A DNA stretch of 32,000 nt from an uncultured bacterium (GTDB lineage: Bacteria; Patescibacteriota; Gracilibacteria; UBA1369; PNNO01), in contig OY969931.1 in the NCBI GenBank assembly GCA_963704705.1, positions 300,001-332,000 of the forward strand, read 5' to 3'. How positions within the stretch are numbered: position 1 is the stretch's first letter; each line of letters starts with the position of its first letter. Below the pieces are notes generated by a model. The model made no database searches. It saw nothing but the letters and a program-made list of their open reading frames with translations, and was not told the origin of the DNA. Made by a program: the position numbers and the translations under genes. Shown here piece by piece: positions 5,956 through 29,527 of this stretch.

Positions 5956-6240
5956 ATAATAGATGGTCATTTTATCAATAAAATGTCTAATTTTGCTTAA
6001 ATCGCATAAAATTGCGCGAGATTGTGTAAAATTTAATAAAGTTTAATCAAATTGTGTGAAATTAAATTAAACTTGTCAAAATTGTTGAAATATTATTAAA
6101 GTTGTGTTATATATAATAACGCTATTTGAAATTTAGGCAGATTTAATTAGATAGTCTGAAACTTGCTAAAGTTGCGTGAAAATGATAAAATTTTAATAAG
6201 GTTTAATAACCTTTATCAAAATTATATAAAATAAAATAAG
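5951..6240. repeat. 10-bp-phased A/T-tract repeat region with a 30-bp super-period (about 29 consecutive decamers, no indel)
   Basis: Decamers in register: atttaataat, ..., attgcgcgag, attgtgtaaa, atttaataaa, gtttaatcaa, attgtgtgaa, attaaattaa, acttgtcaaa, attgttgaaa, tattattaaa, gttgtgttat, ..., acttgctaaa, gttgcgtgaa, aatgataaaa, ttttaataag, gtttaataac, ctttatcaaa, attatataaa. Most start RTT and end AA(A). TTGYGYRAA-type decamers recur at 6012, 6022, 6052, 6082, 6102 and 6172. The region ends at the GTG start of the HTH gene. Confidence 0.7.
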
Positions 6241-6533
6241 TGGTATCTGAAAAGTTATTAACTACGGAGCAAGTTGCAGGAATATTGCAAGTTCACCCAT
6301 TCACTGTCCTGAAGTATATTAAGACAGGAAAAATTAAAGCGATTAAGCTTGGACGTGTATGGCGAATTAGAGAAAGTGATGTTGAGGGGTTCCTCGAAGA
6401 AAGATCCATGGCTTCTAAAGAACCGAAAGATACACCAACCATATCTCAGAAAACATCAACCGAAATAAAAGAAATTGATTTAGACGAAAACCTTCTGCCA
6501 AACGATAAAAGCGACCATTATATTCTTGAATAG
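6240..6533 (+). CDS. Excisionase/MerR-type helix-turn-helix DNA-binding protein
   Basis: 97 aa with a GTG start. LLTTEQVAGILQVHPFTVLKYIKTGKIKAIKLGRVWRIRESDVEGFLEE matches the excisionase-family HTH pattern (L.t.eeaA..L.vs..tv.r....G.ip..k.G..wri....l..wl). The C-terminal half is acidic and low-complexity. Confidence 0.75.
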   Translation: MVSEKLLTTEQVAGILQVHPFTVLKYIKTGKIKAIKLGRVWRIRESDVEGFLEERSMASKEPKDTPTISQKTSTEIKEIDLDENLLPNDKSDHYILE

Positions 6534-6717: not shown

Positions 6718-6765
6718 CTTAAAAATTCGATCTCCTTTTAAATACAAGCCCTAGAAAAGCCTTAG

Positions 6766-6802
6766 CAAAAAACTCCCTTATAATTTCCCCGGGAGTCTTT
6801 TG
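6766..6802 (-). terminator. Rho-independent terminator between convergent genes (stronger on minus, potentially bidirectional)
   Basis: ACTCCC (6772-6777) pairs with GGGAGT (6791-6796). On the minus strand the hairpin is followed by a T6 run (the complement of the A-run 6767-6772); on the plus strand it is followed by CTTTT (6797-6801). It sits about 50 nt after the stop of the last gene of the giant-protein operon. Confidence 0.5.
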
Positions 6803-6847
6803 CATAAAGCCGGCTAAAGCTTTAGTATGTTAATCTATCGAATTTCG

Positions 6848-7879
6848 TTATTGGCATTGGCGTTCACTGGATTTTTTAGTGCATGTTTTTAGTTTTGATA
6901 AAGGTTCGAATGTAGCATTTACTATATCGATAATTTCCTGAATTTTTTTGTCATATTCAGATGCCACAGTATCATTGCCTTTTTTATATTTGGCTTCGTA
7001 TTCGGCACGAACAGAGGCTGAATCTATTTTTCTGACATACTCTTCAGAGGTATCAACAATTTTTGATTGAATATCTACAATCGTAGGTTCACCAGAACCT
7101 GATTTTTCACCTTCTTTATATAACTCATTTACTATCTGATCAGGGGTTTTGATAGAAGGAATGTTATTTAAACGCATATTTTCAATTCCTTTAACAAAGC
7201 CCTCCATTGCTTTACTTGGAGTTGAAATAGCTTTGCCCCAGTTATCTTTAACTGATTTAGCCTGATCTCCCAGAGATTTGATGTTTTTTACAAAACTGTC
7301 CCATTTTTTCTTTAGTTCTTCAAAATCCGCATCTTTGCATTGACCATATCTGGCTCCGATTTTATCTTTGTATTTTGCTTTGAATTTATCGAATAAAGTT
7401 TTTAATTCCTCATCAGTGAAATCAGTATTATCTAAAACAAATGCCGATCTCATCATGCTATATACTTTTTCATCCGGAATTGTCTGAATTTCACTAACCG
7501 GAATATCAATAAAGTTTCTGACATAGAATAGCTCAGCCTTTGTTTCATTATATTTTACTTCCAGTGTTACTCCCTGCTCTGCATTACACTTTAAGAATGC
7601 GTCTTTTATTTGTTTGCTGATTGCATCAAGCTGTTTGATTAATTGGCTAATATCATTGTAATGACAGATATTCTTGCTGTATCTGTCGAATAAATCCTTC
7701 CAATACTCTGAAAAATCATTATACGAAAGCTGGGAGGTAACAAAGTTCTGCCAATTATCAAAACAGGTTTGATTTACTTCAAGGTTTTCCAGGTTATCGC
7801 CGTAGGCAGGGGAGATTGTTAGCCCAATTAAGGCTAATGCAAGTATTGATGTCCAAATTTTAGTGAATAGATTTTTCAT
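6848..7879 (-). CDS. Secreted hypothetical protein, helical, C-terminal ...ERQCQ (cassette gene 4)
   Basis: 343 aa with a Sec-type signal peptide MKNLFTKIWTSILALALIGLTISPAYG|D. The sequence is K/E/D-rich and heptad-like, with several Cys including the penultimate residue. Its start lies 7 nt after the stop of the upstream gene. Confidence 0.75.
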   Translation of the reverse strand: MKNLFTKIWTSILALALIGLTISPAYGDNLENLEVNQTCFDNWQNFVTSQLSYNDFSEYWKDLFDRYSKNICHYNDISQLIKQLDAISKQIKDAFLKCNAEQGVTLEVKYNETKAELFYVRNFIDIPVSEIQTIPDEKVYSMMRSAFVLDNTDFTDEELKTLFDKFKAKYKDKIGARYGQCKDADFEELKKKWDSFVKNIKSLGDQAKSVKDNWGKAISTPSKAMEGFVKGIENMRLNNIPSIKTPDQIVNELYKEGEKSGSGEPTIVDIQSKIVDTSEEYVRKIDSASVRAEYEAKYKKGNDTVASEYDKKIQEIIDIVNATFEPLSKLKTCTKKSSERQCQ

Positions 7880-7886
7880 AAATATG

Positions 7887-9395
7887 TTAAGTACAGTAAG
7901 GAGTATTTGCGAAGTTATTGCAGGCTTCGACCATTTTATCCATTAATTCTTTGATTGATTTAAAATAAATTTTCCATGCATCAAGTTCTTCAATTAAAGT
8001 TTGATATTGTTTGTTTTGAAGTTCGGTTTGCAGAGTTTTAGTACCTGCAACCTGAGACTGAACTGATTCTGCTGTTTTTCCCTGAATTATTTGCGTTGCT
8101 TTATTAATAACCTCCTGAAGAGATCCGTCCGGGCTTGCATTGCTTATAGCTTTACTTGTAGCTCTGTCTTCAACATTTTGATCCGAACCGGTATTAGTGC
8201 CTGTATCAAAATAGTAAGGATTATATTTCTCAAGGAGTGTTTGCCATTCTTTTTCAATATTTAACTTAACGTACATATCGGTATTTGCCTGTTTTGGAGG
8301 AGGAACCGCCATTGTAATAACATTCATATTTGCACCAATATTTGTGAATGAAGACTTACATTTAGGCATTTCAAACAGATTTCCCGAAACTTTGTTTGCT
8401 GTAAGTGGTTTGCTCAGCATCTTATCAAGTTCTTTGTTCATGTTTTGTATATGGCAGAAAATACAATTATCTGTTTTTGAATATACTTTTGAAGCTCCAA
8501 AATCGAATTTTACTTCAATACAGAAGAAAGCCCCATCCGGACATAAATATTTAGCTGGCCAGTCATCAGGCTTTGCCAATGGAAAGCCTGAATCATCAAA
8601 AGTAATACCTGCGTCCTGTTGATTTTCCTGTCCCGCGCCTGCATTTTGTTGATTTTGTTGGTTTTCTTCAAATGCATTTAATGCATTTTCAAGATTATTT
8701 TCATCCGCAAGACAGCTAAGTGCGCTAAATTCATCCTGAATCTCAGTTGTTTGAGTTGGAGTTGTTGATGATGATGGAGTTGTTGTTTGATCTCTACCAA
8801 ATAAGTCGTCGATTACAGCTGCTTCTTCAGGGTCTGTAAAATCAAAATCAGGTGTTTGGAATTTGCCTCCAAACGAGCTTATTGATCCTTCATTAAACAG
8901 AATTACCTCTATTACAGTCAAATCATATAAAATATCAAAGTCTGAGTTTGAAGTATCGCCATCTTTGAATATTTCCGTTGGGCTAACCTTATTAACAAGA
9001 TCACTTCTTAAGTTCTCTGTATCAAGTTTAGTATAATATTCCTGATACATTACTTGATATTTAGTTGTAAGATCCTGGATTCCTTCATCTTTGTTTTTAC
9101 TTAGAATCGGAGATAGATCGCCTTGTGTAATTACTTTATCTACATCATCACTAGATAATTTAAGTTTTTTACCTGCTTCTTTGGCAGCTTTTTTGGCAGG
9201 ATCCACTCCAACTTTTTGATAAATATCCAAATATAAATTCTGAGCAACCGCTTCTTTTGTTGCTTTTTTAGCTTGTGTAATTAATTCATCAATACTTGCA
9301 GGGTTTGAATTGCTTGCAGCATAAGTTGTACTTAGTGCAGCTCCTGCAATAAATAATGTTATAAAAGCCAATATGTAGATAATGATTTTTTTCAT
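7887..9395 (-). CDS. Secreted hypothetical protein with T/S/P and N/Q linkers and a Cys-rich core, C-terminal ...TPYCT (cassette gene 3)
   Basis: Signal peptide MKKIIIYILAFITLFIAGAALSTTYA|A starting at the ATG at 9395 (the ORF track start at 9410 adds MYLVT and would overlap the upstream gene). Low-complexity TTTPSSSTTPTQTTE and ENQQNQQNAGAGQENQQ linkers. Cys cluster CPDGAFFCIEV...NCIFCHIQ. Penultimate Cys. Confidence 0.75.
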   Translation of the reverse strand: MKKIIIYILAFITLFIAGAALSTTYAASNSNPASIDELITQAKKATKEAVAQNLYLDIYQKVGVDPAKKAAKEAGKKLKLSSDDVDKVITQGDLSPILSKNKDEGIQDLTTKYQVMYQEYYTKLDTENLRSDLVNKVSPTEIFKDGDTSNSDFDILYDLTVIEVILFNEGSISSFGGKFQTPDFDFTDPEEAAVIDDLFGRDQTTTPSSSTTPTQTTEIQDEFSALSCLADENNLENALNAFEENQQNQQNAGAGQENQQDAGITFDDSGFPLAKPDDWPAKYLCPDGAFFCIEVKFDFGASKVYSKTDNCIFCHIQNMNKELDKMLSKPLTANKVSGNLFEMPKCKSSFTNIGANMNVITMAVPPPKQANTDMYVKLNIEKEWQTLLEKYNPYYFDTGTNTGSDQNVEDRATSKAISNASPDGSLQEVINKATQIIQGKTAESVQSQVAGTKTLQTELQNKQYQTLIEELDAWKIYFKSIKELMDKMVEACNNFANTPYCT

Positions 9396-9400
9396 AGTTA

Positions 9401-10021
9401 CTAAGTACATTTAGCGGTTGTGGCATCAACGAATTTAGACGGAAGCTTTTCAATCTCCTGTCTTAATTCGGATAGCTTTTTGTTATATTTTGTTAAAGCT
9501 TCAATTAATTTTTCAAATTTTTCGTGCATTCTATAGGTAGGCAGGATTTCATTGTAAGTATCCAAAGCCATATCTAATGCCTTTTTGGCTTGCGTTAACT
9601 CATTATCAATAGTTAAAGTCTGGCTTGCAGATAAAATCCCGATCTTTGCTAAACCTTCTTCCTGTCCCATTGAAACTGTTTGTTTTCTTTTTCTTAGTGC
9701 TTCCGCGTATTTTTCATATTCGTCGGCAACTGCTATTGAAAGACAGAATGTTGAGTAATTGTTCTCGCTGCATTCGTCTGCCGTAGGTATTTTTGTTGTA
9801 CCAGAACCTTTATCTCCTTGTTTTAACAATTTTAGTTTTGAATTGAATATGTCATTTATTCGTTTATGGTAAAGCACTTTAACTTCTTCGAAAGTTAATT
9901 GTTCTTTGTCGTATTGATTAATTGTTGCTGCCTGAAGCGTTCCGTAGAACAATCCTGATGCCAAAATTAATACTGCAAGTACGAGTGTAAGTCCGAATTT
10001 TATTTTTTGTTTTTGTATCAT
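9401..10021 (-). CDS. Secreted or anchored helical hypothetical protein, C-terminal ...TAKCT (cassette gene 2)
   Basis: 206 aa with an N-terminal hydrophobic signal, MIQKQKIKFGLTLVLAVLILASGLFYGTLQA|A, and a coiled-coil-like remainder. The start overlaps the upstream stop as ATGA (10018-10021). Penultimate Cys. Confidence 0.75.
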   Translation of the reverse strand: MIQKQKIKFGLTLVLAVLILASGLFYGTLQAATINQYDKEQLTFEEVKVLYHKRINDIFNSKLKLLKQGDKGSGTTKIPTADECSENNYSTFCLSIAVADEYEKYAEALRKRKQTVSMGQEEGLAKIGILSASQTLTIDNELTQAKKALDMALDTYNEILPTYRMHEKFEKLIEALTKYNKKLSELRQEIEKLPSKFVDATTAKCT

Positions 10022-10551
10022 ACGCAGTTTTTAATAAAACAAGGTACGCGGCCTTTTAATGTTAGCCATTTACCATAAAGCTGCATAACAGCTTTAAACA
10101 TTTCATCCATTTTTTTATTTATTGCTTTAAGTTTTTCCATTACTGCTGAAGTTGTTTTTACGTTTGAAGTCTGTTCAAAATAACTCCTTAATTGTTTTTC
10201 CATAAGGTTAATTTCGCTGGTTACCATCTGGCTGCATTTAAGTTTTTGTGCAGCTGTTCCAAAAAGTTCAAAATTGTCTTCAGGTAAATATTCATTATAT
10301 TTTTGATAAAGATCTTTTTTATATACATCGAATCTCTTTAAAGCCAAATCAAGCAAAGAAGAATTAGTTTTTTTGCTTTGAAAATGTTCCTGCATATAAG
10401 TTCTCATTTCCGCGCTTTTCTGCTCAAGGAAAGGTTTCATGTTTGCTACACAATTATTGTCGGCATCCGCTGCAAAAGCAGTTGGAAGTCCTCCCGCAAA
10501 AATCGAGAAACTTATTAATATTGCCAATATTTTTTTAAGTTTATGGTTCAT
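10018..10551 (-). CDS. Secreted helical hypothetical protein, C-terminal ...IKNCV (cassette gene 1)
   Basis: 177 aa with signal peptide MNHKLKKILAILISFSIFAGGLPTAFA|A and a helical K/E-rich body. Its ATG (10549-10551) lies inside the last codons of the giant ORF (11-nt overlap in a different frame). Penultimate Cys. Confidence 0.75.
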   Translation of the reverse strand: MNHKLKKILAILISFSIFAGGLPTAFAADADNNCVANMKPFLEQKSAEMRTYMQEHFQSKKTNSSLLDLALKRFDVYKKDLYQKYNEYLPEDNFELFGTAAQKLKCSQMVTSEINLMEKQLRSYFEQTSNVKTTSAVMEKLKAINKKMDEMFKAVMQLYGKWLTLKGRVPCFIKNCV

Positions 10552-13500
10552 ATTTAAAGGTTAATTCGTTACTTTTTGAGAAAATCGTAGACAAGTCGCC
10601 ATTCGCAATAACAGCAAACAGAATGTCGCCTATAATTAAATCCGCCTTATGATCAAGCGCAGAAAGACATGGACATGAATTGCAATCATTCTCGACAACA
10701 TACACTCCTTCATCTAAATTCTGTCTTGGATCAAAGCCTCCTTCTTCTATTCTTCCAGTTGTAATAAGCTCGTCATCCTGAGGATAGTCCACAGGATTTG
10801 TTCCTCGTTCAACTTCAACACCATCATATGTGCCTCCATCATCAGTGTCAGGATCAAAAGGATCGGTTCCGAATCTGTATTCATCCAAATTACTTAAGCC
10901 GTCTCCATCAGGATCAAGTCCCGCATCATTTGGATCATTCGGATCAAGACCATTTTGAATTTCCCATATATCCGGCATTCCATCACCATCAGTATCGATT
11001 ATGTAACAATCAAACGCCTGCAGTACTCTGTCCGCTATTGCTGCGAACTCAGCACGTGTTAATAATTTATTAGGCTGCGAAGCTTCACTTGGAGTGAGAA
11101 TATAAGTTTCTTTTACCTCGCTTTCTTTAAGAAGGCGAGGGGATATATCAACCGCAATATTCATATATGGAACATACCATGCCTGATCTTTTGAAGGCTG
11201 AACATCAGCCAGGCTTATTATTCCCTGTTTTTCAAGAGCTTCCAAAACAATCTTTACTGCTTCAGCTCTTGTAATTGTTGCTTCCGGTTTATAAGGGTTC
11301 AAACCTGATTCCTGGTCGATCTCACCAACATAACCTGTAACAAAGCCCTGTAATGTAGCTTCTTTAATAACAGGATAATAATAATTATTCTCATCAAACG
11401 GCATGTCAGAATAAAGATTAGGTTCTTCATGTGCTTCCGGCCTAGGAATAATACAAAGCATTTTCAGGATAATATCAGCAAAATCTTTTCTTGCAATAAA
11501 TTTGTCAGGATTAAAATCATATTTACCGTCAACTATTTCTCCCATTAAAATATTTTTTTGTGAAAGATTTACAATTGAATCATAATAAGGGTGATCTTCA
11601 GGTACGTCATCAAATGGCGAGCCAGCAGCTTTATTTGGATTTTTACCCCAGCTGACTTCATCACCGTCACTAAATCCATCACCGTCAGTATCAGGATTAA
11701 GGGGATTAATTCCAAGCCTGAATTCTTCTAGATTTGAAAGTCCGTCTCCATCAGAATCCAAGTTGGCATCATCTGGATTTCGCGCATCAAAGCCGTATTG
11801 CAATTCAAAATTATCACTCATTCCATCACCATCAAGATCGCTTGTACTAATTTCTTTAGGAAGACCGATTTGATCCCGACTCACAATTTCCGCTTGTTTG
11901 CCGTTATTAATTGAGATAAATACTTCCGCGATAACATTTGAATCATAAAGCATTTCAATTACAAGGGGTTCGTTTGTGTCAGTTACAGGTTTAAGTCTTA
12001 AATCAAGTTTATCATCAAAGAAGTAAATGTTTCCGCCTGAATCAACAATTGAAACTCTCGAATCAGAGCTTGTATCTCTTATTTCCGCACCACCGGTAAA
12101 GTTGGGATCGTCAGCAGGCAGACTGCTAATTTCAAATTGATCGTTTGGATTTGTATCTTTAATATGTGTACCTTCAAGTTCGAATATTGAACCAATATCA
12201 AAATTAAAATCGCTATTGTGAATTGTTACATCAGTATTTAAATCAGGAATCAGCAAAACAGTGGTCATTATTTCGTTTGTTGATTTTTCAATTACAACCA
12301 TTCTGGTTGGCATACTTGGGAATGTTGCTTCATAAACATCCACATAATAATTTTCATCTAGAATTATTATTCTTCCGGTATATGTATCGATTTCAGCTAC
12401 AACCTTGCCATCAACATTTTTAACTAAAATCGCATCATTGTAATTTAAGCCGTCAACTCTGAAATTACCTTCTTCGTCAGTTGTCGTTTCTGCAATCTTA
12501 CTGACTGCACCATCACGTTTTCTAACAAGAGTAATTGGAATATCCTGTGCCACAGGATCAATTGAACCAGTAATTAATTCGCTTGTAGCTGATGATTCAT
12601 TAAGAGTGATATCAGGCGCAACAACTTCAATGTTAATTATTTGTTTACCGATATTTCCTGATTCATCCACTGCATTAAGACCATATTGAACAGTACCGAG
12701 TTTTTCAAAAGGACCGATCAGAAATATTGGGTGACTCGGGATTGAATTCATGTAGTCGTTATCATTTGCCGGATCACCATCGTTATCTGAATCTTCTTTA
12801 ATATTTGTATCAATATAGAATTGTTTAATTTTTCCGTTTGTATCAAAAGATTTTGAAGCATCCAGCCGTAACGTCTGCATAACAATCACCTGTTTATCGG
12901 ATGGGCCGGCTTCCACAAATGGCTTTTGATCATCAGAACAAATCTGAGGTGCAAATATTTTTGTTTCAGTTGGATTGCCTTTTTTGCCATTATTGCCGAT
13001 CGCATATATTTGAGAATAATAATTTCCTTCTTCTGATTGAAGGTTAATAAATGGATTGTTCGGATCAGTAAGTTCAATTATTTTAAGCGAATCTTCAGGT
13101 CCGAGAATTGTTTTCGCACCATTAGCAAAAGTGATTTCCATTGTTCCGCTTTGCATTTGAATTGTTTCATTGAACTGTAAAAGCATTCCTCGTTCAGCTG
13201 ATGTTTCGTTTATAAGTTCATCAGTCGGAGTAATAAGTTCAACTTTTCCGCTTGTAACCTGGATTTCAATATCGTCTGTGTATTTTTGTGAAACCGGTAT
13301 TGTTCTGTTTGCGGATATTTCAAGATTTTGCTGAACTCCTTCTTCAGGGTAAATTATCATTTTCGAGTCTTCCATTGTATGAATTATCTGTCCTTTTTGT
13401 AGAATTTGTCTGCCTGAACCTGAATTTAGGATTTGTCTGGACATGCCTTTTAATGTCGCTTGTCCACTGAAATTTGATATATACGCAAGTCCGTCAGCTA

Positions 13501-16500
13501 CTGTTGATCCAAAGAAATATGAATTTTTAAGCGGTTCAACTGTGTCTCCATTTTTAAATATCATTTTTACATCGGCGTCTTCGTTTATTGTGCTTGAATT
13601 TTCCTGTAAAAACATATTGGTAAAGAAGTTGCTTCTGAATTCCGCGCGCCCCGTAACTACTGTGACTTCAAAGTCACCCGGTGTATAGTCAGGTAACTTA
13701 ATAATTGTATCAGGTCCAAGGAATATCTGGCTCGAATCAGAGAAACTGATTGCAACTTGAGTATTAGGATCCGAACCTGTTTCTATTGAATCTCCGAAAT
13801 TATAAAGTTCCGATGATTCACCATTAACAGTATAAGTTCCTTCCACAGCTGTAATCTCGAGGTCTTGTTTAATTCTACCTACCGTAATAGTTTGTTCTTT
13901 GTTTTCAATAACAACAATTTTATCCGAAGGGGTATAATCAGTTGAATCAAAATCAGCCAGGCTATCTTTATTAACAATCTCATAACCGGATATAGAACCT
14001 TCACTTAAGCCCTGCCAGTCAAAGTCACCTTCGGTTCCCACATCATAAGTAACATTGTAATTATTTACTGTTGGAGCCTCCGGAATATAATCATCTAAAT
14101 TTGCCACTTTTGCATTTTGTGAATTGTACTTAACAAATTCACTTGCAGGAGGTTTAGTGTAATTTTCTTTTAAATATACATTTCCGCCATAAGAATAAAT
14201 AATATCTTCATCTTCGTCTTTATCAATATCAGCAATAATTGAATTGTTTGGAAGACCAATCTCGCCTTCATACATTAGGATTCTTTCATTTACTCCTGTT
14301 GCAGGATTAAAGACATACAATCCTGTAAGTTCTGTTTGTCCGTCAGGATTTGTCACCTGCTCTTCACTAATTACATTTGGAGAAATAGCATTTGTATTTA
14401 AAGCTATAAGTCTCGCTGTATTTTTTATTCCTTCAAAAGATTCACTTTCGGTTTTCTTTTTAATGCTTAACGGTACAGGCTCAGCTGAAGCGGTTTGTCT
14501 TGTTTTAATATAATCATTTAATCTCGGAGCATTATCTGCAAGTGCAACTAAGCGGTCATAATCTTCTCCAACCGACTGACTGAATAATTGGTCGCTATCA
14601 GTATATGCAATTAATGCATCGCGTAAATTAGTATGATAATTAGTTGCCATTTCCGGAGGAAGATCTTCATTTTCAATGGAAGTTTTAATTTCTTCATAAG
14701 AACTATTTAAAGCATCTGGATTAATATAACTTTGTGTTGCGACAAGTTTAATCGGGTCAGGATTATAAGCCTGCGGACTTGGAATTTCAGGTACGGCAGG
14801 CACTTCTGGTATTGATGGGATCTCAGGAGTAGGTATTTCTATTTCTGAAATAGCCTGAGAAATTTCAGCGGAAACTTTACTCAAATCAGTTGCAATGCCA
14901 TTCCACGCTTTTGCAACTTCTTCGATCGACTTATAAATTGAATCTGTTTCGAGCCTTAAATCAACCTTTAGGTTTAATTTGATTTTATCAATCGAAGGAA
15001 TATTAACTGCGGGAGATTGTACGCTGAACAATGTATCTATTGGCAAAGACGTACTGCTTGAACGCGCTGTAGCAGCTTCTATATGCGATTTCAAATTTGA
15101 AACAGGAATTGGCAGTAAGTTTTTTTTCAATAAACACATTATTTTAATTGCAACTGAAAGACCATCCAAAGCAGTATCTATATTTGATGAAAGCTCAGGA
15201 ATTTTTGGCGGATCAGGTAAGTCAGGCAATTGTGGCAAAGGCATTGGCGGCAAGTCAGGCAATTCAGGGAATTCTGGAATCTCAGGTAGTTCAGGAATTG
15301 AAACACTTAACACCGAAGAAGCATTTTTAATAATATCCAGATTTTGTTCAATTTGTTTTAAAATATTTTCAACTTCTGGTGGCAGTGGAACACCCGGCTG
15401 AGTCGGCAATTGCGGAAGCGTTGGGAAGGTCGGCAATTGGAAATCAGGCAATTTTGGCATTATTATTTGTTCCTTTTTAAACTGAATATCAGGAAGCACA
15501 ACTTTTAATCCAAGTTGAATCTGAGAGAAGTCAAAATGGAAATCCGGCCACTTAGGAAATTGAATTATAGGTGGCTGTGGTATTGCGCCGGTGAACAATT
15601 GCGCAAGCAGCTGCATCAAACTGTATCTTTCAGTTTTACAGCTATCGCAAGTCTTCATATAGTCGGACATGAGTTTACTAATTTTTTGCCATGTTTTAAG
15701 CAGATTTTTTATGTCTAAAGTAACCTTTTGCCATCCATTAATTTTGCTGACCTGTTTTTTAAAGTATCCGCCCATGTAAGTAACAATAGTGTCGAGGTAG
15801 CAAATTAATTGTTTAATGTATTTTGTTTTAACATTTTTCCATTCCAGAATTTTAGCCGGTAGTTTTTTATATTCTTCTAAAAGCTTAAGATTTTTTTCAA
15901 CGCTTGCGATTGGTTTTTCGATTGAAGCAAACGCAGACAAACATTTATTTTTTAATTCAGGCTTAAGATCACACGGTATTTTTAATTGAACTTTTAATTG
16001 TTGTAATTGAATTTTCGCTTTAGCCAGCCAGTTTTGAAGTTCCGCCTGTAATTTTGGAATTTCTGCTGCAGATAAAGCAGGTATTTTCATTTGAATTGAT
16101 TTGACTTCAAGATCAATTAAAGGAAGTTTATTCACATATGTAAGAACATCCTGGAATGTTTTAAAGTTAGCTGTAGGAGGAGTTTCAGAAACAAATGAAC
16201 TTGGGTTCGGATAATAAACATATAAATCAGGCAGATCCGATAATTTAACCATAATTTCCTCAATCTGTTTTGCGAACCAATCCGTTATAACGCCAGGGAA
16301 GCCAGGTACTTTTTTATTTGTATTTGAAGAACCACTCGGTTTATATCCGCCAAGCAAAGAGGTCCCGGTTAATCCGCCATTGCCTTCTCTTGGATTAATT
16401 GAGCCTGAACTGCCTCCACCGCCGCTCAATAAACTTGTACCGCTTGCTGAACTTATTACATTAGTTGCTTTAGCCATTGCGCTTTCAAAAGCTTCTGAAA

Positions 16501-19500
16501 TGGCTTGGCAGGCTTCAGGAGGAAGTAAAGGAATAATTAGACTCCAACATTGACCAGCAATACAAACCGAATTAGCAAGATGAGCAGTAAGAGTTGGACT
16601 TAAATAAATTGTAACAGGTCCATAAACAAATACTGGGGTTCCCGGGTCAGCTCCAGCCGGTGTTCCCATAACATTTATAGGTCCCGGAGCCAAGAATGCC
16701 ATATTAATTGGAGTTGGAATACAGCCTCCTTTACAACTGAATGTATCAATTATTTTGCTTATTTCATCAGCTACATTATCAACAGCCCCATTTACTTCAT
16801 CCCAGGCATTTGGTACACCATCACCATCTGCATCACCTTCATTAAGATCTTTAGCCATATCTTCGATTTCACTTGGCAGACTATCTGCAATACCATCACC
16901 ATTTGCATCTTCAATTCCAAAAGGTAAATCAGGTTTCTGTGCTTGTGCAGGGTCAGTTACATACCTGCTATAGCTCATTCTGCCTGTTTCCTGATCTTTT
17001 GAAACAGAATATAAGAATAAATTTTTACCTGAATTGTTATTTGATGGATTAGCGCTTATATCAAGGAATCCATCTTTAGGGAAGTTAGCGTCAAAATTAG
17101 AATTAAGGTCTAAAGCAATTTCAGGAACATTAATTACATTCATTTCATAAGTTATAAGTCTGCTTTCACCTGAAGGTATTGAAGGGATAGTCACAGCCCA
17201 TGGTCTTAAGCTCATACCAGTATCAATAACCTGAATGTCCTGATTACAATTTATACATTTTAAACTGTCTGGATTAAATTCAAGTGTATCGGTTATAAAA
17301 TCACTTAACATTAAATTATTTATTTCATTCGGACTGTTATTAAACAGAGTTATCGTGTAGACAATTTTATCGCCCATTGCCAGTGTGGATCCGTTTATAT
17401 CAACGGCTTTCTTTGAGCTGTCCGTACTTCCGAAAATTGGATCAGCATCCATATAAATAAATGGAACTTCTTCCTGTGCCGCAAAAACCGCTGGGTCGGC
17501 ACCAAGAGCTTCAAGTTGTGCCTGTGTTGCCGCATCAACAAATTCGTTATTTGAAGCGGATCCGGATTTCATTGTAATAGACTGGAAATTAAAGTCGTCA
17601 TCAAGATATGGAATTTTTTTTCCTTCCGAATCCAATACAAAGTTACCATTCGCATCAATAACATATTCAAGCTCTACTGGCATTCCATCATAATGAATAA
17701 GAACTTCATTTTTGAAATCACTACTGCCATCGATGCTCATTCCAAGGTTTTCTACAATTTGTCCGTTTGTATCAATTACCCCTTCGTTGTTGTAATAAAT
17801 TTTTATATTTCCTGAAAGCTCGGCAAGAACAATATCTACATACCCATCATTGTTCATATCACCGATCTTTATACTTGAGACTTTGTCATCCAAATCAAGA
17901 TCCAAGTGAGTTCTTGTAAAATTGCCTTCGTGATTTTCATATAAATAGAAACAAACTTCATCTCCCACACAAGGATCTTTTGTTGAAACAAGCAAATCAT
18001 CATATCCGTCATTATTAAAGTCGGCCGAGGCAATACTGTAGATGCCATTTGTTATGTCCAGAAGAAGACCTTTATCTTTATAAGGCCTTGCTGAAAGCTG
18101 CCTTTGTAGAAGTCTGACTTCGCCACTTTCGTAGGCCAGAATAATGTCATCAAGACTATCGTTATTGTAATCAGAAAGTACCATTTCCTTTATTGTATCG
18201 TCACCGGAATATAAAGGTTGTCCAATGTCTTTTGTGTAACCTGCTGAAGTAATTTGGTTCTTTAAGCCAAGTCTTACAGTAGGGTCGCCAAGATTAATTC
18301 CAATGTCAGTTGCGTATGGGATGTTAGAAACCCCCACGCTGTTGCCGCCCGCAAAGAATAATGAATGTTTGTTGTCACCATCTAAGCCAACTCCCATTAC
18401 ATCGTTTATTTTTTCGAGTGATGTATACGAGAATCCAGGGGCACTTGAACCAACAACTTTCAAGTTTTTATCGCTTATTAATACACCTTTTGGTTCTTTT
18501 GTTGATGATCCTGCTACTGTTTGAGAAACAATGTAATCATCAGAAAGCTTTTTTACAAAAATTCCATTAGATGTTATCGCAGAATTGATTTTGGCATCAG
18601 TATTTAAGTTTTTCGCATAAATAATTTCAGCGATTTTTTCATCAGCATATAAAACATCAAGCACAAGGAATGAACTTTCAGTATCACTTAATTTAATTTC
18701 CATTAAATTATCAGATACTTTCAATTTCCCTCCGCTTGAGATTCTAAGTCCTTCATTTCCGTTAACAGTTATTCCTGCTGCATCGCTTAGTTCAACAAAT
18801 TTAAACATCTCATCTTCAGTTTGTTTTATTAAATATATTCCTTCCTGCAGCATTTCTGTATTTGCGAAATCAACAATGTTTATTGGCATGCCTCCCGGAT
18901 ATTCATAAGTTACCTCTGCAACATCCTGACCAGTTTCCGGATTGCTTATAATAACGCTATTTGGAGCATTGAAACTTGATTCAAGTGAACTGTCGCCAGT
19001 CATACTTATTCCGCCATTTGCGTCTATTGTAGCCAAAGGCATATTTGGATTTGCGTCCACTGTTAATGCTGTAACAGCCTGAACATTACCTTTAAATAAA
19101 ATTTCTCCTGCCGCATACTTTTCCTGCGTTGGGTCACCAAATGGGCCTCCAAGCATTGTTCCATATAAAGCATCGGGATAATCACCAACAATATCTTCTG
19201 AACTTATTTTAGTAAGCGGATATAAATTTATAGTACCCGAAGTCAGCCCAGGACTTGAGGCCACCAGGTGAACTTCACCTGAAATTCCTTTGCCTGCAAT
19301 TGTAACTTCAGCCTTCCCTTTGTTGACGATTGCAGAAGCATCTGAAGTGATCTCTCCGTATTTCGAAGTTTCATCAGTAATTCTGAATGTTAAAGGTGTT
19401 TGATTGTCGAATTCAACAAAATTTCCATTCATATCATAAATTTTCGCAGTTACTGTAGTGCTGTCGTTGCTTGAATTAAATGTGTCCGAATCTGTTTCCA

Positions 19501-22500
19501 GCTTTATTTCGAAAGGCTGATAAGCAATTGAATAAATTTGTATCAAGCCCGGATCAAGCCCGATTGAAGTCGCGCTAACTTCTTCAATTCCAGATTTTGT
19601 TGTTGATTTAAATGTAATTGTCGCCTCACCATTTTGTAAATCTTTTACTGGATCGGTTGTAAATGCTCCGAGGCTTTCGTCAGCTGCCTTGAATATAATC
19701 TGTTCATTATATCCTGTTAAAATACTGCCGGTTCCATCAACAGCCTGTGCTCTAAGCTGAATAGTGTCTGATCCATTGGCATAAATAAATTCTTTTCCAG
19801 GAATGATTTCAAGTTTAATATCATCGCGAGATGCAACGGTTGTACTCGCAGATAAATTTAAGTCATCTTTATTTAGTGTGGCGTTAATCTCAATATCACC
19901 TTCCAGTTCTGTTGAGAATAAATCCACATTAACAAATCCTTCATAAGTATCAAGCTGTATGCCTTCTTTGTTTTTATCAATATCAGCATTTATATCAAGA
20001 ACTCCGGGACCGCTAATATTTACATCAATATCAAAGAAATCATTATTTACAACATTGTTGTTGATATCATAAAGAGTGATTGTTAATGGTGTTTTTGAAA
20101 GCCCGCCTGTTTTAATTACATTAGAACGCGGAGTGATTTCCATTCGTACAGGTGGCTGAGGCTCTGCAAAAACCTGATGAGGCATTGTTGGCAATGAACC
20201 AGTAACGAGTTTTGCTCCTACATCAATTACTCCGGCATTCGTTGTTGAAGTGATTGTATTAACTGCTGTTCCGTTTTGAACTCGTACTTTTGTTTCACCA
20301 AGCTTAGCATCTGTTGTAGACGTATCTTTTAAAAAGAATTCAATTACACTGTTATTGTCACTTTCTATAATGTCTCCTTTTTCATCAAGTACTTCAGCTG
20401 CAAGGAATAATGTAGACAATCCGTCAGCTGTGAAAGTGTCTATCAAATTCAAAACCTGCTCCTGCACACCTTCTGTGATTATCTGAAAAGCAGTGTCTTT
20501 TTCAATGTTATTGCCAAGCGCCACTATTCCCACTCCAAAAGCCGGATTGCCTGTGTCGTCACCTCCACTTAAAGGGTCGGTGTTCTGAAGCCATACTTCA
20601 TCACCATCTTGAGTACCTCCGCCATCAGTGTCCGGATTTCTCGGATCAGTATCATTGTTATATTCATGAATATTTATAAGTCCATCAGAATCAAAGTCAT
20701 AATATGCATCTGATGAATCAAATTTATCCAAACCATTTGCATCTTCCCATATGTCCGGAATTCCATCTCCATCACTATCCAAAAACGCATCATCAGACGG
20801 ATCAAGTGGATTTTTATTGCTTACAATTTCAGTAAGGTCATCAAGCCCGCCCTGGTCAGTATCAGCTGATGTAATTGAAGTGTTGTATTGGTAAATTTCT
20901 ATGTTATCTGGTAATCCGTCGCCATCCTGATCAAGCTTGTAGCAATCAAACACTTTAGTAATATTTTGTACCATAATCGCAAATTCAGCTCGGGTAATAG
21001 GTGATGTAATATAAGTTTCGAATACATTACTTGGAGAACTCAGCTCATTATCAACCCAATCTTTGAATTCTTCTTCTGAATAAGTATTAAATGGCGCAAG
21101 TGATGGATTGGTTTGTTCAGGATAAATATTTTCGGATTTTGCTTTAAGTACATATCTGTAATACCACGGCTTTCCTGCTTCATAATAATCAAGGCTGTCT
21201 ATTCCTGCGGCTTCAAGGATCACTTTGACCGCTTCAGCACGGCTTATATTGTATTGGGGTTTAAAATATCCGGCATCTTTTCCAGCTGCATAACCTGCTA
21301 CAATTCCTTCATTTTTACCTTCTTTAACACAATATCCAAACTCTTCAGAAATATCCGAATCAGGAAAAGGACTGGGAGCGTAAATAGAATCCACTTTTTG
21401 TTTAGCAGCATCTGAAAATTTAGAGCAATTCACACATGTTATACCAAGAACCATTCTAAGATATTCTTCACGTGTAATTAAATCGTTCGGTCTAATTGTA
21501 TTATTCGCACCTCTCGTGATTACACCTTTAAGTAGGAGGCTGGTAAATGCACTATAAGATGCCTGAACCGGATCCAAATCACTAAATAACTTCGCGTCTT
21601 TTTTAAGTGGATCATATCCGCTTGTAATTTCTTCTCCATCTCCAAAGCCATCTTTATCTGTATCTTTATCGATTCTGTTTGTGCCTATAAATGTTTCTTC
21701 CAAGTCTGTAAGCCCGTCCTGGTCACTGTCATTTTCATGGCTGCTTTGAGCAAAAGCTGTTTTGCTGATTTTTTCAATAAGTTTGCTAAGCAAATCAGGA
21801 AAGTCGCTTGTTACATTAATCTGGCTTTGCCTGTAGCTTATATAAAATTCAGCCAGATCATTTCCGCTGCCGTCTTCAATAATAAAAATATAAGGTTCAT
21901 CAGTTTTATCCGGATTTTTTACTATTATAAAATGTTCATCCGCCACATAAACCTGTCCTTCATCTGTTATTCTTGCGATTCTTTGTGTATATGGTCCGCT
22001 ATTATCAAGAAGATAAATTGAATTATTTAATTCATACGGAATAACATAATCATTAGTTCTGATATCTTTAACATGGATTCCATTTAATGTTAGGGCGTTT
22101 TCTTCAAAGCTAAAATCAGGTTGCTGCAATGTAACAGATTTTTCATCAGGAACAACCATTACAGCCGCAACCAAATTACCTGTTCTGATTTCAATTATAC
22201 CTACACGCAATCTTTTATCTGGTTCTGATTCAAACACTTCTATATCGTAGGCTTCATTTTTAATCGTAATTTTGCCTGTGTCCGGGTCGATTTCCGCAAT
22301 TATTTCACCCGCATCATTTTTAACCACATATCCGTTTAATACTTCCTCTGTAAAAGTAGGAGGTTCAACAGTTTGAAGTTCATAAGTATAAACCCGAATT
22401 TTTCTGGCTTCACTTCGCAAACTTAAAATATTTGAAGTTAATATTGCTGGTCTGTTAACAGACTCAGCTGAAATATTAAATGAGCCAGGCACATCTGTTG

Positions 22501-25435: not shown

Positions 25436-25471
25436 TTTTTAGCCGGCTTGATATTTATTAAATATCATATT

Positions 25472-25565: not shown

Positions 25566-25573
25566 TCAATATA

Positions 25574-25630: not shown

Positions 25631-26158
25631 TTATAGGAGTCTCATAAAGTATGTATCTCCTTCACTTGGTTGGGCTGATCCATCAAATGATTCTGGATCA
25701 TCATTAGTATTATTTTTCTTTGGCGTTTCCATTACAGTAGCAATAATATATTCAATTCCATTTTCACCTATACGTTTGTAATAATATTGTCCATTCTCTA
25801 CACAGTCACCTGGATCAGTTACTTCTGTTGATAGACTTCTGTTTGGAGATGGATCTTTTGGAGGAGTTCCACCTTTAAAGTAATCAACAGCAACTGAATC
25901 TGAGCCTCCTGGTTCAATAAATACACCGTCAGCATCACCTGTGAAACAAGCACCAGCACCTAATGCCAATGGGTAAGTACCATAGTCAGAGTTAAATGTT
26001 TCAAGAGCAGTCACTAAATTATTAATATCTCCTTCTCTTGCAGCGTCCCTTCCTCTAGAGAGAGCATCTCTAATAGTCGGGTACAATGAAGCAGCAAGTA
26101 CGCCGATAATCGCAATTACTATAAGTAATTCGATTAGTGTGAAACCTTTTCGTTTCAT
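25631..26158 (-). CDS. Type IV pilin (major pilin candidate)
   Basis: MKRKG|FTLIELLIVIAIIGVLAA is the canonical class III (prepilin peptidase) signal with Gly-1/Phe+1/Glu+5. The globular C-terminal domain has two Cys. The ORF track start at 26185 adds 9 residues; the ATG at 26158 gives the usual short leader. Confidence 0.9.
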   Translation of the reverse strand: MKRKGFTLIELLIVIAIIGVLAASLYPTIRDALSRGRDAAREGDINNLVTALETFNSDYGTYPLALGAGACFTGDADGVFIEPGGSDSVAVDYFKGGTPPKDPSPNRSLSTEVTDPGDCVENGQYYYKRIGENGIEYIIATVMETPKKNNTNDDPESFDGSAQPSEGDTYFMRLL

Positions 26159-26224
26159 GGTTAAATGGTTAAAGTTATATTCCAATTAAACATTATACAA
26201 TATTGAAAAATAAATGCAAAAAAA

Positions 26225-27496
26225 TTATGTAGTTCCTATTACTGAAGACATATTAAGTATTGGCAGCATAACCGCAGCAACAAGCCCTCCAACAGCTATT
26301 CCAACAAAAACCATAATTATCGGTTCCATTACTTTTGTAAGACTTTTTACAGCTGTATCAACCTGTTCATCATAAAATATCGCCAATTTTTTACTAACAT
26401 CCTCCAATTGCGCTGTTTGTTCACCGACTTCAATCATATTCACGAGCATATTCGGAAATTCTTTGCTGTTTCTTAGAGTTTCGGCTAAAGGTATACCACC
26501 TCGGATATCATCGCCTGCATGTTTGATTTTCCGCTTATAGACCTCATTTTTCATTGCATTTCCAATTATATGTAATGATTGAGTAATTGATACCCCCGCA
26601 CCCAATAAATTTCCAAGACTTCGCGCAAATTGGGCAAGTGTGGATTTTCTTACCAAGTCACCAATTATTGGTATTTTAAGCATAAAAATATCCCAGTAAT
26701 TTTTACCTTCTTTTGTTTTTTTCAATGTAATTATTCCTACAACAAATATAGTTATGCCCAAAACAATCGCTATAGCATTATTTCGCATAAAATCACTTAA
26801 CCCTATTACTAACCTGGTTATAAAAGGAAGTTCTGTTCCTGTTTCAAGAAATAACTGAATAATATTTGGTACAACAAATACCATCATTAAAAACATTACA
26901 ATGAGCAAGATTGTTAATACCACTATTGGATAAGTAAGAGCGCCTTTAACTTTTGCAATAGTACGCGCGTTTTTCTCCGTCTCTTTTGCCATATCTTTTA
27001 AAATATCGTTTAAATGGCCTGAAACCTCACCGCTACGTATCATCCCAACCTGTGAATCACTGAAAATTTTAGGATTTTTCTCCATTGACCCTGACAGGCT
27101 TTCACCTTCTTCAATTTTAATTGCCATGTCATTTATGGCTCTTTGAAATTTTTTGTTTTTTGCATTTTGATCAGCCAAGGTTTCAAGTGCTCTGATAATT
27201 GGAATTCCTGCGTCTACCATAACCGCAAGAAGCCTGAAAAATACAGCTTTCTCCTGCAATTTTACTTTTCCCATTTCAACAAGCTTATCATCAAACCTTC
27301 TATACAAATCAAGGAAAAAATTCCCTGTTTGTTCAAAACCAAGTTTCTTTTTTAAAGCAATTTTATCTTTACTTCTGCCTATATTTAAAACGATTTTTCC
27401 CTCAAGTTTAGACTCGACTTCTTCTATTTTCTGAGCCTTATTTAATTCAAATGTTTCACCGGCTGTTTGTTGAGCAAAATCTTTAGCTTTCTTCAT
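26225..27496 (-). CDS. pilC: Type IV pilus assembly platform protein PilC (GspF/T2SS-F family)
   Basis: 423 aa. Two T2SS-F repeats (..FSDSQVGMIRSGEVSGHLNDILKDMA.. and ..FPNMLVNMIEVGEQTAQLEDVSKKLA..), each followed by hydrophobic helices. Overlaps pilB by 14 nt. Confidence 0.93.
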   Translation of the reverse strand: MKKAKDFAQQTAGETFELNKAQKIEEVESKLEGKIVLNIGRSKDKIALKKKLGFEQTGNFFLDLYRRFDDKLVEMGKVKLQEKAVFFRLLAVMVDAGIPIIRALETLADQNAKNKKFQRAINDMAIKIEEGESLSGSMEKNPKIFSDSQVGMIRSGEVSGHLNDILKDMAKETEKNARTIAKVKGALTYPIVVLTILLIVMFLMMVFVVPNIIQLFLETGTELPFITRLVIGLSDFMRNNAIAIVLGITIFVVGIITLKKTKEGKNYWDIFMLKIPIIGDLVRKSTLAQFARSLGNLLGAGVSITQSLHIIGNAMKNEVYKRKIKHAGDDIRGGIPLAETLRNSKEFPNMLVNMIEVGEQTAQLEDVSKKLAIFYDEQVDTAVKSLTKVMEPIIMVFVGIAVGGLVAAVMLPILNMSSVIGTT

Positions 27497-28886
27497 TTTG
27501 TTTAGTTTGAGGAATTTGAGCAGTTTGTTTGATTTCGATTGTTGGCTGAGGTTTAGGATTTTTCGCTACGTTCGCTTTGCTCACTCCAGGGGCTTCGCTC
27601 CCTTCGGTCGCTCCAGAGACCTCCGCTGACGCTTCGGTCTGGTCTTCCATTTTTCTTGCAACTCTGTAAACTTCATCAAGGCTTGTTTCACCCTGAAGAG
27701 CTTTAATTACACCAGCCTGTTCAAGTGTAATCATGCCTGTTCTCATTGCGATTTCTTCAATTTCAAGCGAATTGGCACGTCTTAAAATGGCTTTTCTAAG
27801 CTCATTATTCATCTTCATCACTTCAAATAAACCAAGACGGCCAGTGTAACCAACGCCATCGCATTTATCACAACCCTTACCTTTATAAAATTTCATTCCT
27901 TTTAATAAATTTCTATCAAATGGTTCATCAGCATGAATCAATCCTACCAGATGTTCTATATGGTCAAGTAAATGAGGATCAACCTGATCTTCAATTTTAC
28001 AGTTTTCACAGATTTTTCGTACAAGACGTTGTGCAATAATACATTCAATTGTTGAAGCCATTAAAAATGGCTGAACTCCCATGTTATCAATACGTGTAAG
28101 CGTTTCGATTGCACTATTGGTATGTATTGTACTAAATACCAAATGGCCAGTTAAAGACGCTTCGATAGCTGTATCAACGGTTTCACGGTCACGGATTTCT
28201 CCAACCATTATAATGTCCGGATCCTGACGCAAACCAGTACGCATACCGAATGCAAAGGTATAATTGATATCCGGATGCACTTGTGACTGATTAAGTCCGT
28301 CAACAGATATTTCCACCGGATCTTCAATTGTCATTATATTCACATCAATTTTGTTCAAACGGTTTAAACAAGAATACAAAGTAGTTGTTTTACCTGAACC
28401 CGTAGGCCCGGTATTTAATATAATTCCATTTGGAGATTTTAAACTTTCTTCAATAAAATGCATTGCATTACCCTGCAAACCAAGTTCAGGAAGATCAGGA
28501 ATTTTTCGCGATTTGTCCTGAATACGCATTACAACTTTTTCACCGTTTACGGTAGGTAAAGTTGAAATACGAAGGTCCATCTCTCTTCCGTCACGGGTTG
28601 TAACTGTTGAGCGTCCATCCTGCGGAATTCTTTGTTCATCGATTTTTAAATTCGACATGATTTTAATGCGCGAAACCACAGCAGGGTGAATATTACTCGG
28701 ATATTCAACTATCTGACGCAAAACACCATCAATTCTATATCTTATACGAATTGTATTTTCCTGCGGTTCAATATGAATATCAGAAGATCTGATATCAAGT
28801 GCATAACTTATAGTATTAAGAACAAGCTGAGGGATATTTCCCGATATAATCGCATCCTGTAATAGTTGTAGTTTTTCAGCAGGCAT
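27483..28886 (-). CDS. pilB: Type IV pilus assembly ATPase PilB (GspE family)
   Basis: Walker A GPTGSGKTTTLYS, Asp box, Walker B PDIIMVGEIRD, His box TGHLVFSTIHTN, and the tetracysteine motif CENC...CDKCDG. It has an unusual ~55-aa E/A/S/T/Q/P-rich C-terminal tail. Confidence 0.95.
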   Translation of the reverse strand: MPAEKLQLLQDAIISGNIPQLVLNTISYALDIRSSDIHIEPQENTIRIRYRIDGVLRQIVEYPSNIHPAVVSRIKIMSNLKIDEQRIPQDGRSTVTTRDGREMDLRISTLPTVNGEKVVMRIQDKSRKIPDLPELGLQGNAMHFIEESLKSPNGIILNTGPTGSGKTTTLYSCLNRLNKIDVNIMTIEDPVEISVDGLNQSQVHPDINYTFAFGMRTGLRQDPDIIMVGEIRDRETVDTAIEASLTGHLVFSTIHTNSAIETLTRIDNMGVQPFLMASTIECIIAQRLVRKICENCKIEDQVDPHLLDHIEHLVGLIHADEPFDRNLLKGMKFYKGKGCDKCDGVGYTGRLGLFEVMKMNNELRKAILRRANSLEIEEIAMRTGMITLEQAGVIKALQGETSLDEVYRVARKMEDQTEASAEVSGATEGSEAPGVSKANVAKNPKPQPTIEIKQTAQIPQTKQNEES

Positions 28887-28888
28887 AA

Positions 28889-29527
28889 TTATTGTTCCGA
28901 AGTTACCGATCTAAAATACGCATTCATGGAAGCGTTGAAGTTTATTTCATCCTGTCCGCTTGTATTGCCAATTGATCCGCTAGGACTTATAAAGTTTATT
29001 GTTATAGTTGTTATTTCAATTAATCTGTTTTTTTCGCTTAAGGTTCCGCTGTTTTCAACAAACTCAAGAAATTTAAAGAAATTATCATAAGAGCTGTGAA
29101 TTGTCATTTTAAATGGCATCACAGAATAATCCTCACCTTCAACTTTTTCTGATTTCAAATACTGCAAATTGTTTATAATAAAAGGATTTTTTATTCTATG
29201 AATATCATTAGCAAATTGTTCCAATGTTCTGGTCAATTTTGTATGGCTTTCATTTTCAGGAAAAACCAGTTCAAGCTCTGTTTGTATTGTTTGATTTAAT
29301 TGTTGAATTCCCTCCTGTTCATTTGCCAATTCAGTTGAAATTATTTCTTCATTATTTTCCAGGTTATTAAAAATTTCAATGTTAGACTGTGTTTCAGCGC
29401 GAACATCAATAAATTTCAAAACATTGTTGAATGTAAAATATCCAACAATTCCAAACAATAAGACACTTAAGACTACGTAAAGTCTTAATTGAAAATAATC
29501 CGATTTAAAGATTGAAGTTGTGTCCAT
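28889..29527 (-). CDS. PilO-like pilus assembly protein (bitopic)
   Basis: 212 aa with one N-terminal TM helix (LRLYVVLSVLLFGIVGYFTF), a coiled-coil and a C-terminal segment YSVMPFKMTIHSSYDNFFKFLEFVENS...RLIEITTITI resembling the PilO ferredoxin-like domain. The operon position, between the PilN-like gene and pilB, fits this call. Confidence 0.55.
   Translation of the reverse strand: MDTTSIFKSDYFQLRLYVVLSVLLFGIVGYFTFNNVLKFIDVRAETQSNIEIFNNLENNEEIISTELANEQEGIQQLNQTIQTELELVFPENESHTKLTRTLEQFANDIHRIKNPFIINNLQYLKSEKVEGEDYSVMPFKMTIHSSYDNFFKFLEFVENSGTLSEKNRLIEITTITINFISPSGSIGNTSGQDEINFNASMNAYFRSVTSEQ

Follow-up and report, generated by a model that had tools for sequence, protein, structure and literature searches.

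A conserved cassette of four secreted, cysteine-rich proteins adjoining a giant SLH-domain gene in Peregrinibacteria and its possible assembly into a disulfide-linked coiled-coil complex

Organization of the four-gene cassette

The window analyzed here is a 32,000-nt stretch of DNA (contig OY969931.1 of assembly GCA_963704705.1, positions 300,001 to 332,000) from an uncultured bacterium of the phylum Patescibacteriota, with a GC content of about 35% (AT-rich). Its minus strand contains, directly 3' of a 4,964-aa giant open reading frame (ORF; 10541-25435), a cassette of four genes, denoted S177, S206, S502 and S343, whose small secreted products might form a single complex on the cell surface. 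The first gene, S177 (10018..10551, 177 aa), is followed by S206 (9401..10021, 206 aa), S502 (7887..9395, 502 aa) and S343 (6848..7879, 343 aa), all on the minus strand. The stop codon of the giant gene and the start of S177 are in an 11-nt overlap, S177 and S206 are joined by an ATGA overlap, and a 7-nt gap separates S502 from S343; the junction between S206 and S502 is a 5-nt gap or, if S502 starts at the alternative ATG at 9410 (507 aa), a 10-nt overlap. The start at 9395 is favored because homologs of S502 mostly begin with MKK.

This arrangement agrees in coordinates, lengths and overlaps with an original prediction made from the sequence of the window, which described four ORFs of 177, 206, 507 (502) and 343 aa joined in the same manner and placed a terminator solely after the last gene. 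The latter claim holds as well. An intrinsic terminator hairpin (6758..6811, minus strand), consisting of an A-tract, a GC stem and a U-tract, is located between the cassette and a convergent helix-turn-helix (HTH) gene. RNA folding of 6755-6850(-) gives it an energy of -28 kcal/mol (z = -3.2, with 0 of 200 shuffled sequences folding as well), and in a consensus scan the terminator-like matches within the cassette are weak and about as numerous as chance predicts (14 found vs 11.6 expected). The same scan missed the hairpin itself because its loop is 13 nt long. Given the presence of both an A-tract and a U-tract, the terminator is potentially bidirectional.

A search of Pfam (at E <= 1), NCBIfam, PHROGs and PADLOC reveals no match for any of the four proteins beyond sub-threshold coiled-coil noise (e.g., TraP at 19 bits vs a cut-off of 135), and the distant family members have no Pfam match either. 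Both single-sequence and profile searches against PDB sequences return only coiled-coil noise; the profile of S343, for example, is weakly and non-significantly similar to apolipoprotein A-I (E 0.035). At E <= 1, none of the four matches the type IV pilin and minor pilin profiles PF07963 and TIGR02532, nor is there a Pfam match to HBL or ClyA, and no match to the families of the type I secretion system (T1SS), two-partner secretion or chaperone-usher systems is found in Pfam or NCBIfam. The assertion that these proteins belong to no known family and are not pilins, T1SS or two-partner secretion components is thus borne out by sequence searches, and the structural comparison points the same way, in that neither PDB nor BFVD contains a fold matching the AlphaFold model of S502. 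A literature search found nothing on this four-gene cassette. As a set of families, the proteins and the module that they form match nothing described.

When the mature regions of the four proteins are compared to one another with hhalign, S177 and S206 are matched with the probability of 79% (E 1.7e-5) and the C-terminal parts of S343 and S502 with the probability of 32%, the other comparisons being negligible. Thus, S206 is a possible remote paralog of S177, judging from profile similarity. Paralogy of all four proteins was rejected: only the S177-S206 match stands on mature regions, and higher scores between the proteins came from the signal peptides.

Distribution, gene order and linkage to the giant gene

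The most conserved member of the cassette, S502, has 32 close homologs, and an exhaustive profile search extends the family to 406 clusters at 50% identity, of which 204 are found at E <= 1e-30; a word-indexed search with an alignment of distant sequences returned just 5 proteins. All named members of the family are from Peregrinibacteria, the labels of the relatives being Candidatus Peregrinibacteria, Peribacteria or Patescibacteria. The loci compared comprise 12 genome loci, 48 metagenome loci of a distant subfamily and two contigs of an intermediate subfamily, in which the cassette genes were detected with iterated hidden Markov models of each family. The gene order S177-S206-S502-S343 is identical in every one of the 62 related loci, and all four genes are detected in 40 of the 63 loci, most of the others being cut by contig ends. 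Such conservation of four intact ORFs in a constant order, across dozens of independent genome and metagenome loci, greatly exceeds what chance would produce. The genes are tightly packed throughout, with the three junctions within the cassette not exceeding 20 nt in 42/45, 47/48 and 54/55 cases.

A homolog of the giant gene adjoins the cassette in 37 of the 41 loci in which the upstream side is visible, and in 36 of these 37 linked loci the distance from the giant stop codon to the S177 start is at most 20 nt. In two loci (L057 and L058), the giant gene and the cassette are retained together although the downstream genes differ. The linkage to the giant gene that was anticipated in the original prediction is therefore conserved. 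Two loci without the giant gene (L014 and L015) had suggested that this linkage is clade-specific or that the cassette is unrelated to the giant gene; this possibility was overturned by the survey of the 48 metagenome loci, which brought the linked fraction to the value given above.

Two of the loci show disrupted genes. In L009, the S502 homolog is split in two ORFs (297 and 229 aa; 9947-11542), and the giant gene is split both in this locus and in L029; frameshifts, pseudogenization or errors of assembly account for these splits.

Export signals, heptad helices and conserved cysteines

Export was judged heuristically, not by SignalP, from an n-region with Lys or Arg followed by a 12-residue core with a Kyte-Doolittle hydropathy (KD) > 1.8. 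By this measure, signal peptide-like N-termini are present in 46/46 members of the S177 family, 47/47 of S206, 49/52 of S502 and 51/52 of S343. The predicted cleavage sites in the window proteins are AFA/A, LQA/A, TYA/A and AYG/D. The Sec-type signal peptide originally proposed for each of the four, with a K/R N-terminus, a single hydrophobic core and an AxA-type site, is accordingly recovered under this heuristic in nearly all homologs. Beyond the signal peptide, the highest KD over 19 residues in the window proteins is 0.55-1.19, so that no 19-residue window exceeds 1.2, and almost none does in the 197 family members. None of the four proteins has a lipobox Cys at position +1 of the predicted cleavage site, the first Cys being at least 7 residues into the mature protein, and no wall anchor is apparent, since none has an SLH match in Pfam and the C-termini end in ...C-x without a hydrophobic tail of the LPXTG type. 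Charged residues account for 24-30% of each protein.

All four proteins had been described as helical, and for S502 this description stands in part. The AlphaFold model of S502 (built from 150 sequences; predicted local distance difference test (pLDDT) 72, predicted TM-score (pTM) 0.41) contains confident helices in the N-terminal (54-140) and C-terminal (426-496) parts, the latter being one long helix with pLDDT 85-95; the center of the protein (~250-370), which is its most conserved region, does not fit the description and is modelled as non-helical at low confidence. In all four families, the 3.5-residue hydrophobic periodicity peaks in the final 35-50 residues, just ahead of a Cys-containing tail. 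These C-terminal heptad helices and tails, all on the minus strand, are located at residues 141-177 of S177 (10021..10131; C171 and C176; periodicity z 4.0), at the end of S206 (9404..9559; penultimate Cys205, invariant in 47/47 members; z 3.2-3.9), at residues 449-502 of S502 (7890..8051; C492 and C501; z up to 9.4) and at residues 302-343 of S343 (6851..6976; C333 and C342; z 4.1-7.4).

The cysteines that had been noted as conserved-looking are indeed conserved in the family alignments of all four proteins. S177, whose family is represented in 46 loci, has four (Cys 34, 106, 171 and 176), and S343, with the family in 56 loci, has six (Cys 39, 72, 98, 181, 333 and 342). There are eight in S502. 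S206 has an odd number, namely, three invariant cysteines (Cys 84, 93 and 205), the last of which belongs to an invariant C-terminal motif, FP.KF(I/V)DAT(S/T)..C-x.

Two further motifs in S502 deserve mention. Residues 141-167 (8895..8975, minus strand) form an acidic motif, E.F..GD.S(D/N)S.FD...DL..IE.ILF, with columns that are invariant or at least 90% conserved in 150 sequences; this motif may bind Ca2+. Residues 311-315 (8451..8465, minus strand) read CIFCH, a CxxCH motif that resembles a haem c site. The candidate role of S502 as a haem c protein, i.e., a c-type cytochrome, was nevertheless rejected: 55 of 172 sequences of the family are devoid of CxxCH, the large distant subfamily has Glu (or S, M or T) in place of the His, and three members (L057, L058 and P0030) lack the Cys pair itself.

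The cassette of L057 is highly divergent. Its S177 and S206 homologs are 290 aa each, with 6 and 7 Cys, respectively, and several canonical Cys are replaced whereas new ones appear, a pattern that suggests a rewired disulfide network.

Covariation of cysteines between the cassette proteins

Conserved Cys columns were tabulated per locus, and 37 loci with all four proteins were available for the comparison between proteins. S177-C171 and S502-C501 are either jointly present or jointly absent (0/37 discordant), and the same holds for S502-C492 and S343-C333 (again 0/37). In L031, the first of these pairs is kept and the second is lost, whereas most of its clade shows the reverse. On a tree constructed with the C-terminal tails masked, each of the four paired Cys columns changed twice, and a random two-change character matches the pattern of the partner in 50 and 61 of 200,000 simulations for the two pairs (about 3 in 10,000). 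After each loss, the other tail Cys of that protein remains invariant, which makes a bond between the two tail Cys of the same chain unlikely.

As a control, Cys pairs that are lost together within one protein mark ordinary intramolecular disulfides, namely, C39/C98 and C72/C181 in S343 and C311/C314 in S502. The last of these, the CxxC of S502, disappears as a unit in all three of the exceptional homologs mentioned above.

The summed number of Cys in the four proteins is odd (21, 19, 17 or 23) in 35 of 36 loci, even though single proteins shift by one; S206 always contributes three. An odd sum implies that one Cys is left over, either to bond with an outside partner or within a homodimer, or to remain a free thiol. 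Taken together with the terminal heptad helices, the covariation suggests a bundle of the C-terminal helices with cross-linked tails, in which S502 is the hub. The same patterns, drawn from alignments of the four families, are direct support for an interaction among the four proteins.

The giant protein

The giant gene (10541..25435, minus strand) encodes a 4,964-aa protein that has a signal peptide and combines two sets of wall-binding SLH domains and TSP3 repeats with Big_1/invasin, FG-GAP and DUF11 domains. The protein contains 30 Cys, and its C-terminus carries an invariant CxxCxC motif at 4918/4921/4923. The central region at ~2900-3700 has no Pfam match and mixes hydrophobic, Pro-rich and K/E-rich helical segments; residues 2880-3720 are helical and rich in Cys. 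Columns 2532/2553 and 4824/4853 hold two additional Cys pairs in the distant clade.

Proposed assembly and alternative explanations

The interpretation that we put forward, with a rough probability of 45%, is that the four proteins form a heteromeric coiled-coil complex stapled by disulfides, which is made together with the SLH-anchored giant protein and is most probably docked on it. The four Sec-exported, soluble, disulfide-rich proteins would assemble outside the cell into one hetero-oligomer in which the C-terminal amphipathic heptad helices bundle as a coiled coil and the Cys tails are stapled by interchain disulfides. S502 would be the hub of this complex, its C501 and C492 forming bonds with S177-C171 and S343-C333, respectively, and S206 would be the fourth subunit, with one Cys free for a further partner. 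The cassette would be translated from the same message as the giant, the stop and start codons overlapping, and the complex would then dock on the giant protein and become part of a pilus-adjacent cell-surface apparatus that contributes to host-cell contact. Docking on the giant is considered the most probable arrangement because the four proteins have neither a wall anchor nor a membrane anchor, SLH domains are present in the giant, and the genes would share a message. Peregrinibacteria are presumed episymbionts, and the proposal can be extended to a hitherto undescribed Peregrinibacteria extracellular organelle, in which a stapled heterotetrameric coiled coil would be mounted on a scaffold of ~5,000 residues that is anchored through its SLH domains and encoded beside the type IV pilus genes; the complex would serve as the host-contact device of the lineage. 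In this extended form, the proposal is possible but less likely than not.

Several observations weigh against a partnership of the cassette with the giant protein or against the proposed complex itself. In four loci (L014, L015, L061 and L063), an intact cassette is found amid unrelated housekeeping genes, with no giant or pilus genes nearby. The region rplJ-pilus-giant-cassette-HTH-uvrA-prsW-recF is collinear across both deep clades, and because the synteny of the whole region is frozen, adjacency of the cassette and the giant gene is strong but not independent evidence of partnership. No homology was found between the cassette proteins and any segment of the giant, and the rate covariation between them in a mirror-tree comparison is weak (partial r 0.17-0.44). 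All 21 Cys in the C-terminal 2,900 aa of the giant are invariant in 22 homologs, and none varies with the cassette; being invariant, these residues are uninformative for covariation. The covariation within the cassette amounts to two evolutionary events per pair, the neighbor-joining tree on which these were counted is approximate, and the corrected p is ~1e-3, not 1e-4, as several column pairs were implicitly examined. Finally, the structural model, with its low pTM and poorly resolved center, covers S502 alone. The suggestion of the original prediction that the four proteins are stoichiometric partners of the giant is accordingly not established, and gene order does not make the partnership obligatory: the argument for it comes from operon structure, two lineages lack an adjacent giant gene, and neither homology nor Cys covariation connects the giant to the cassette.

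Much of this evidence favors the alternative that the four proteins form an autonomous extracellular complex, e.g., one associated with the envelope or the pilus, and follow the giant gene only by virtue of frozen gene order. The stand-alone cassettes, the collinearity of the rplJ-to-recF region, and the lack of covariation or homology with the giant are all as expected under this explanation. However, frozen order does not readily account for the overlap or the spacing of at most 20 nt between the giant stop and the S177 start in nearly all linked loci, nor for the persistence of the linkage in L057 and L058 where the other flanks have changed, and an anchor is missing from all four proteins. 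Furthermore, in the tree of the cassette proteins, the stand-alone loci represent two separate, derived lineages (L014/L015 and L061/L063) nested among giant-linked ones, and for this reason the separation of the cassette from the giant is secondary. An autonomous complex is the strongest of the alternatives, though less likely than not.

The operon position, the translational coupling and the export of all four proteins would also fit extracellular folding or assembly factors, i.e., chaperones that act on the giant without becoming its permanent subunits, and the near-invariant core of S502, including the CxxC, could then be a redox or binding site. Nevertheless, there is no similarity to PrsA, Dsb, thioredoxin or any chaperone family, the CxxC pair is dispensable in the three exceptional S502 homologs, and the cassette persists without an adjacent giant gene. 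The interchain Cys covariation and the terminal heptad helices point instead to a stable structural assembly, and a chaperone role hence appears improbable.

A third explanation is a multi-component alpha-helical pore-forming or otherwise membrane-active toxin of the ClyA/Hbl/Nhe type directed against the host cell. The operons for Hbl, Nhe and AhlABC each encode multiple secreted proteins that are similar in size and mostly helical, and the cassette, in a presumed episymbiont, likewise encodes a group of secreted helical proteins of ~20-50 kDa from one operon; the non-significant similarity of the S343 profile to apolipoprotein A-I could be read in the same way. Unlike those toxins, however, the cassette proteins have no hydrophobic insertion segment, whether tongue or helical hairpin, and no Pfam match to HBL or ClyA even at E <= 1, the S502 model, the only fold modelled, has no match in PDB, and the conserved disulfides would hinder a large refolding, so that a toxin of this kind is very improbable. 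Still less credible is a role of the four as immunity proteins, or as orphan modules, of a polymorphic toxin that resides in the giant: small genes do lie immediately 3' of a very large secreted protein gene, but all four products are exported, their fixed number and order and lineage-wide sequence conservation are the opposite of the rapid turnover of immunity cassettes, the search for a toxin domain in the giant, its C-terminus included, found none, and PADLOC yields no match.

Comparison with known surface assemblies

Laminin and fibrinogen are heteromeric coiled-coil rods of the eukaryotic extracellular matrix that are locked by terminal interchain disulfides. The complex proposed here would resemble them in that different secreted chains are joined by long heptad helices, with Cys at the helix ends bridging the chains. 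There is, however, no sequence or fold relationship, and the cassette is bacterial and consists of four very unequal chains whose assembly is predicted rather than observed.

Among the Candidate Phyla Radiation (CPR), large Cys-rich extracellular proteins that bear signal peptides and contain FG-GAP/integrin, DUF11 and similar domains are described, in the passages found, for Peribacter riflensis (PMC4736985) and Vampirococcus lugosii (PMC8080830). These passages propose that the large proteins mediate attachment to host cells (PMC4736985, PMC8080830). They deal with the large proteins only, and conserved small secreted partners do not appear in them.

The cassette locus also recalls the tip and accessory complexes of type IV pili, which include minor pilins and adhesins of the PilY1/PilC type, given the succession of pilB, pilC, a prepilin, a large FG-GAP/beta-propeller adhesin-like protein and small accessory proteins. 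The differences are that the cassette proteins carry Sec-type rather than prepilin signal peptides, with no N_methyl match, that the giant gene is preceded by a 195-nt gap of its own, and that the cassette also occurs far from pilus genes.

With the SLH-anchored S-layer and S-layer-associated proteins of monoderms, the system shares the SLH triplets of the giant, which would tether it to a wall polymer. An anchored scaffold bearing non-anchored partners is a known arrangement in S-layer systems. The four cassette proteins differ from S-layer proteins in having neither SLH nor another wall-binding domain, and no lattice-forming protein was identified at the locus.

CPR bacteria represent a large share of bacterial diversity and are thought to live attached to other cells, and conserved hypothetical surface proteins are common in their genomes. 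We know of no account of how attachment occurs in Peregrinibacteria. The present analysis defines a lineage-wide surface module of five genes, encoding four small secreted proteins besides the anchored giant, and turns four 'hypothetical proteins' into a falsifiable assembly model with two named interchain disulfides. The four proteins thereby become targets for multimer modelling, metaproteomics, and localization with antibodies or by cryo-electron tomography, and if they are indeed involved in host contact, attachment in this uncultured CPR group would become testable with defined proteins. Their eventual function may turn out to be an ordinary accessory role of a surface adhesin.

Genomic neighborhood

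The cassette and the giant gene belong to a co-oriented run on the minus strand that starts with rplJ and rplL and continues with the type IV pilus genes (25631..30747, minus strand), namely, unannotated 406-aa and 212-aa genes, PilB (T2SSE), PilC (T2SSF) and a 184-aa prepilin. No Pfam matches were found for the 406-aa and 212-aa proteins; the prepilin has an N_methyl match at 3.6e-10. The gap between the prepilin and the giant gene spans 25436-25630 and contains a promoter-like site that lies 37 nt ahead of the start codon of the giant gene (25500-25472) and consists of GTGACA, a 17-nt spacer and TAAAAT with a TG extension; promoter-like hits as a whole are about as frequent as expected by chance. 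In both deep clades the pilus block comes directly before the giant gene, and L064 and L065 show the same succession of genes; in L065, however, the pilin and the giant are separated by an insertion of two genes on the opposite strand. In L066, a related pilus block lacks the giant, and proteins of 547 aa, 1,050 aa (with SLH) and 956 aa are encoded in its place.

DsbD/CcdA-type thiol-reductant transporters are encoded 2-8 kb from the cassette in both stand-alone lineages, as represented by a DsbD_TM protein with a thioredoxin-like protein in L014 (19435-21350) and a DsbD_2-HMA-cupredoxin fusion in L061 (4956-6386). The proximity of these genes may be a coincidence or may be tied to disulfide handling of the cassette proteins.

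On the far side of the cassette, the convergent excisionase-type HTH gene (HTH_17; 6240..6533, plus strand) is followed by uvrA, a gene for glycerophosphodiester phosphodiesterase (GDPD), prsW and recF. The HTH_17 gene is tail-to-tail with the cassette in most related loci with a visible downstream side and is kept even in the giant-less L014 (13132-13464) and L015 (7407-7700), where all other neighbors differ; it is absent in L057-L059, L061 and L063. This gene could be a dedicated regulator of the cassette or merely a sticky neighbor. The GDPD gene (2079-2777, minus strand), located between uvrA and prsW, is present in the window and in its closest relatives, L003 and L004, and absent from this position in all other loci, and is a small lineage-specific insertion within an otherwise frozen neighborhood.

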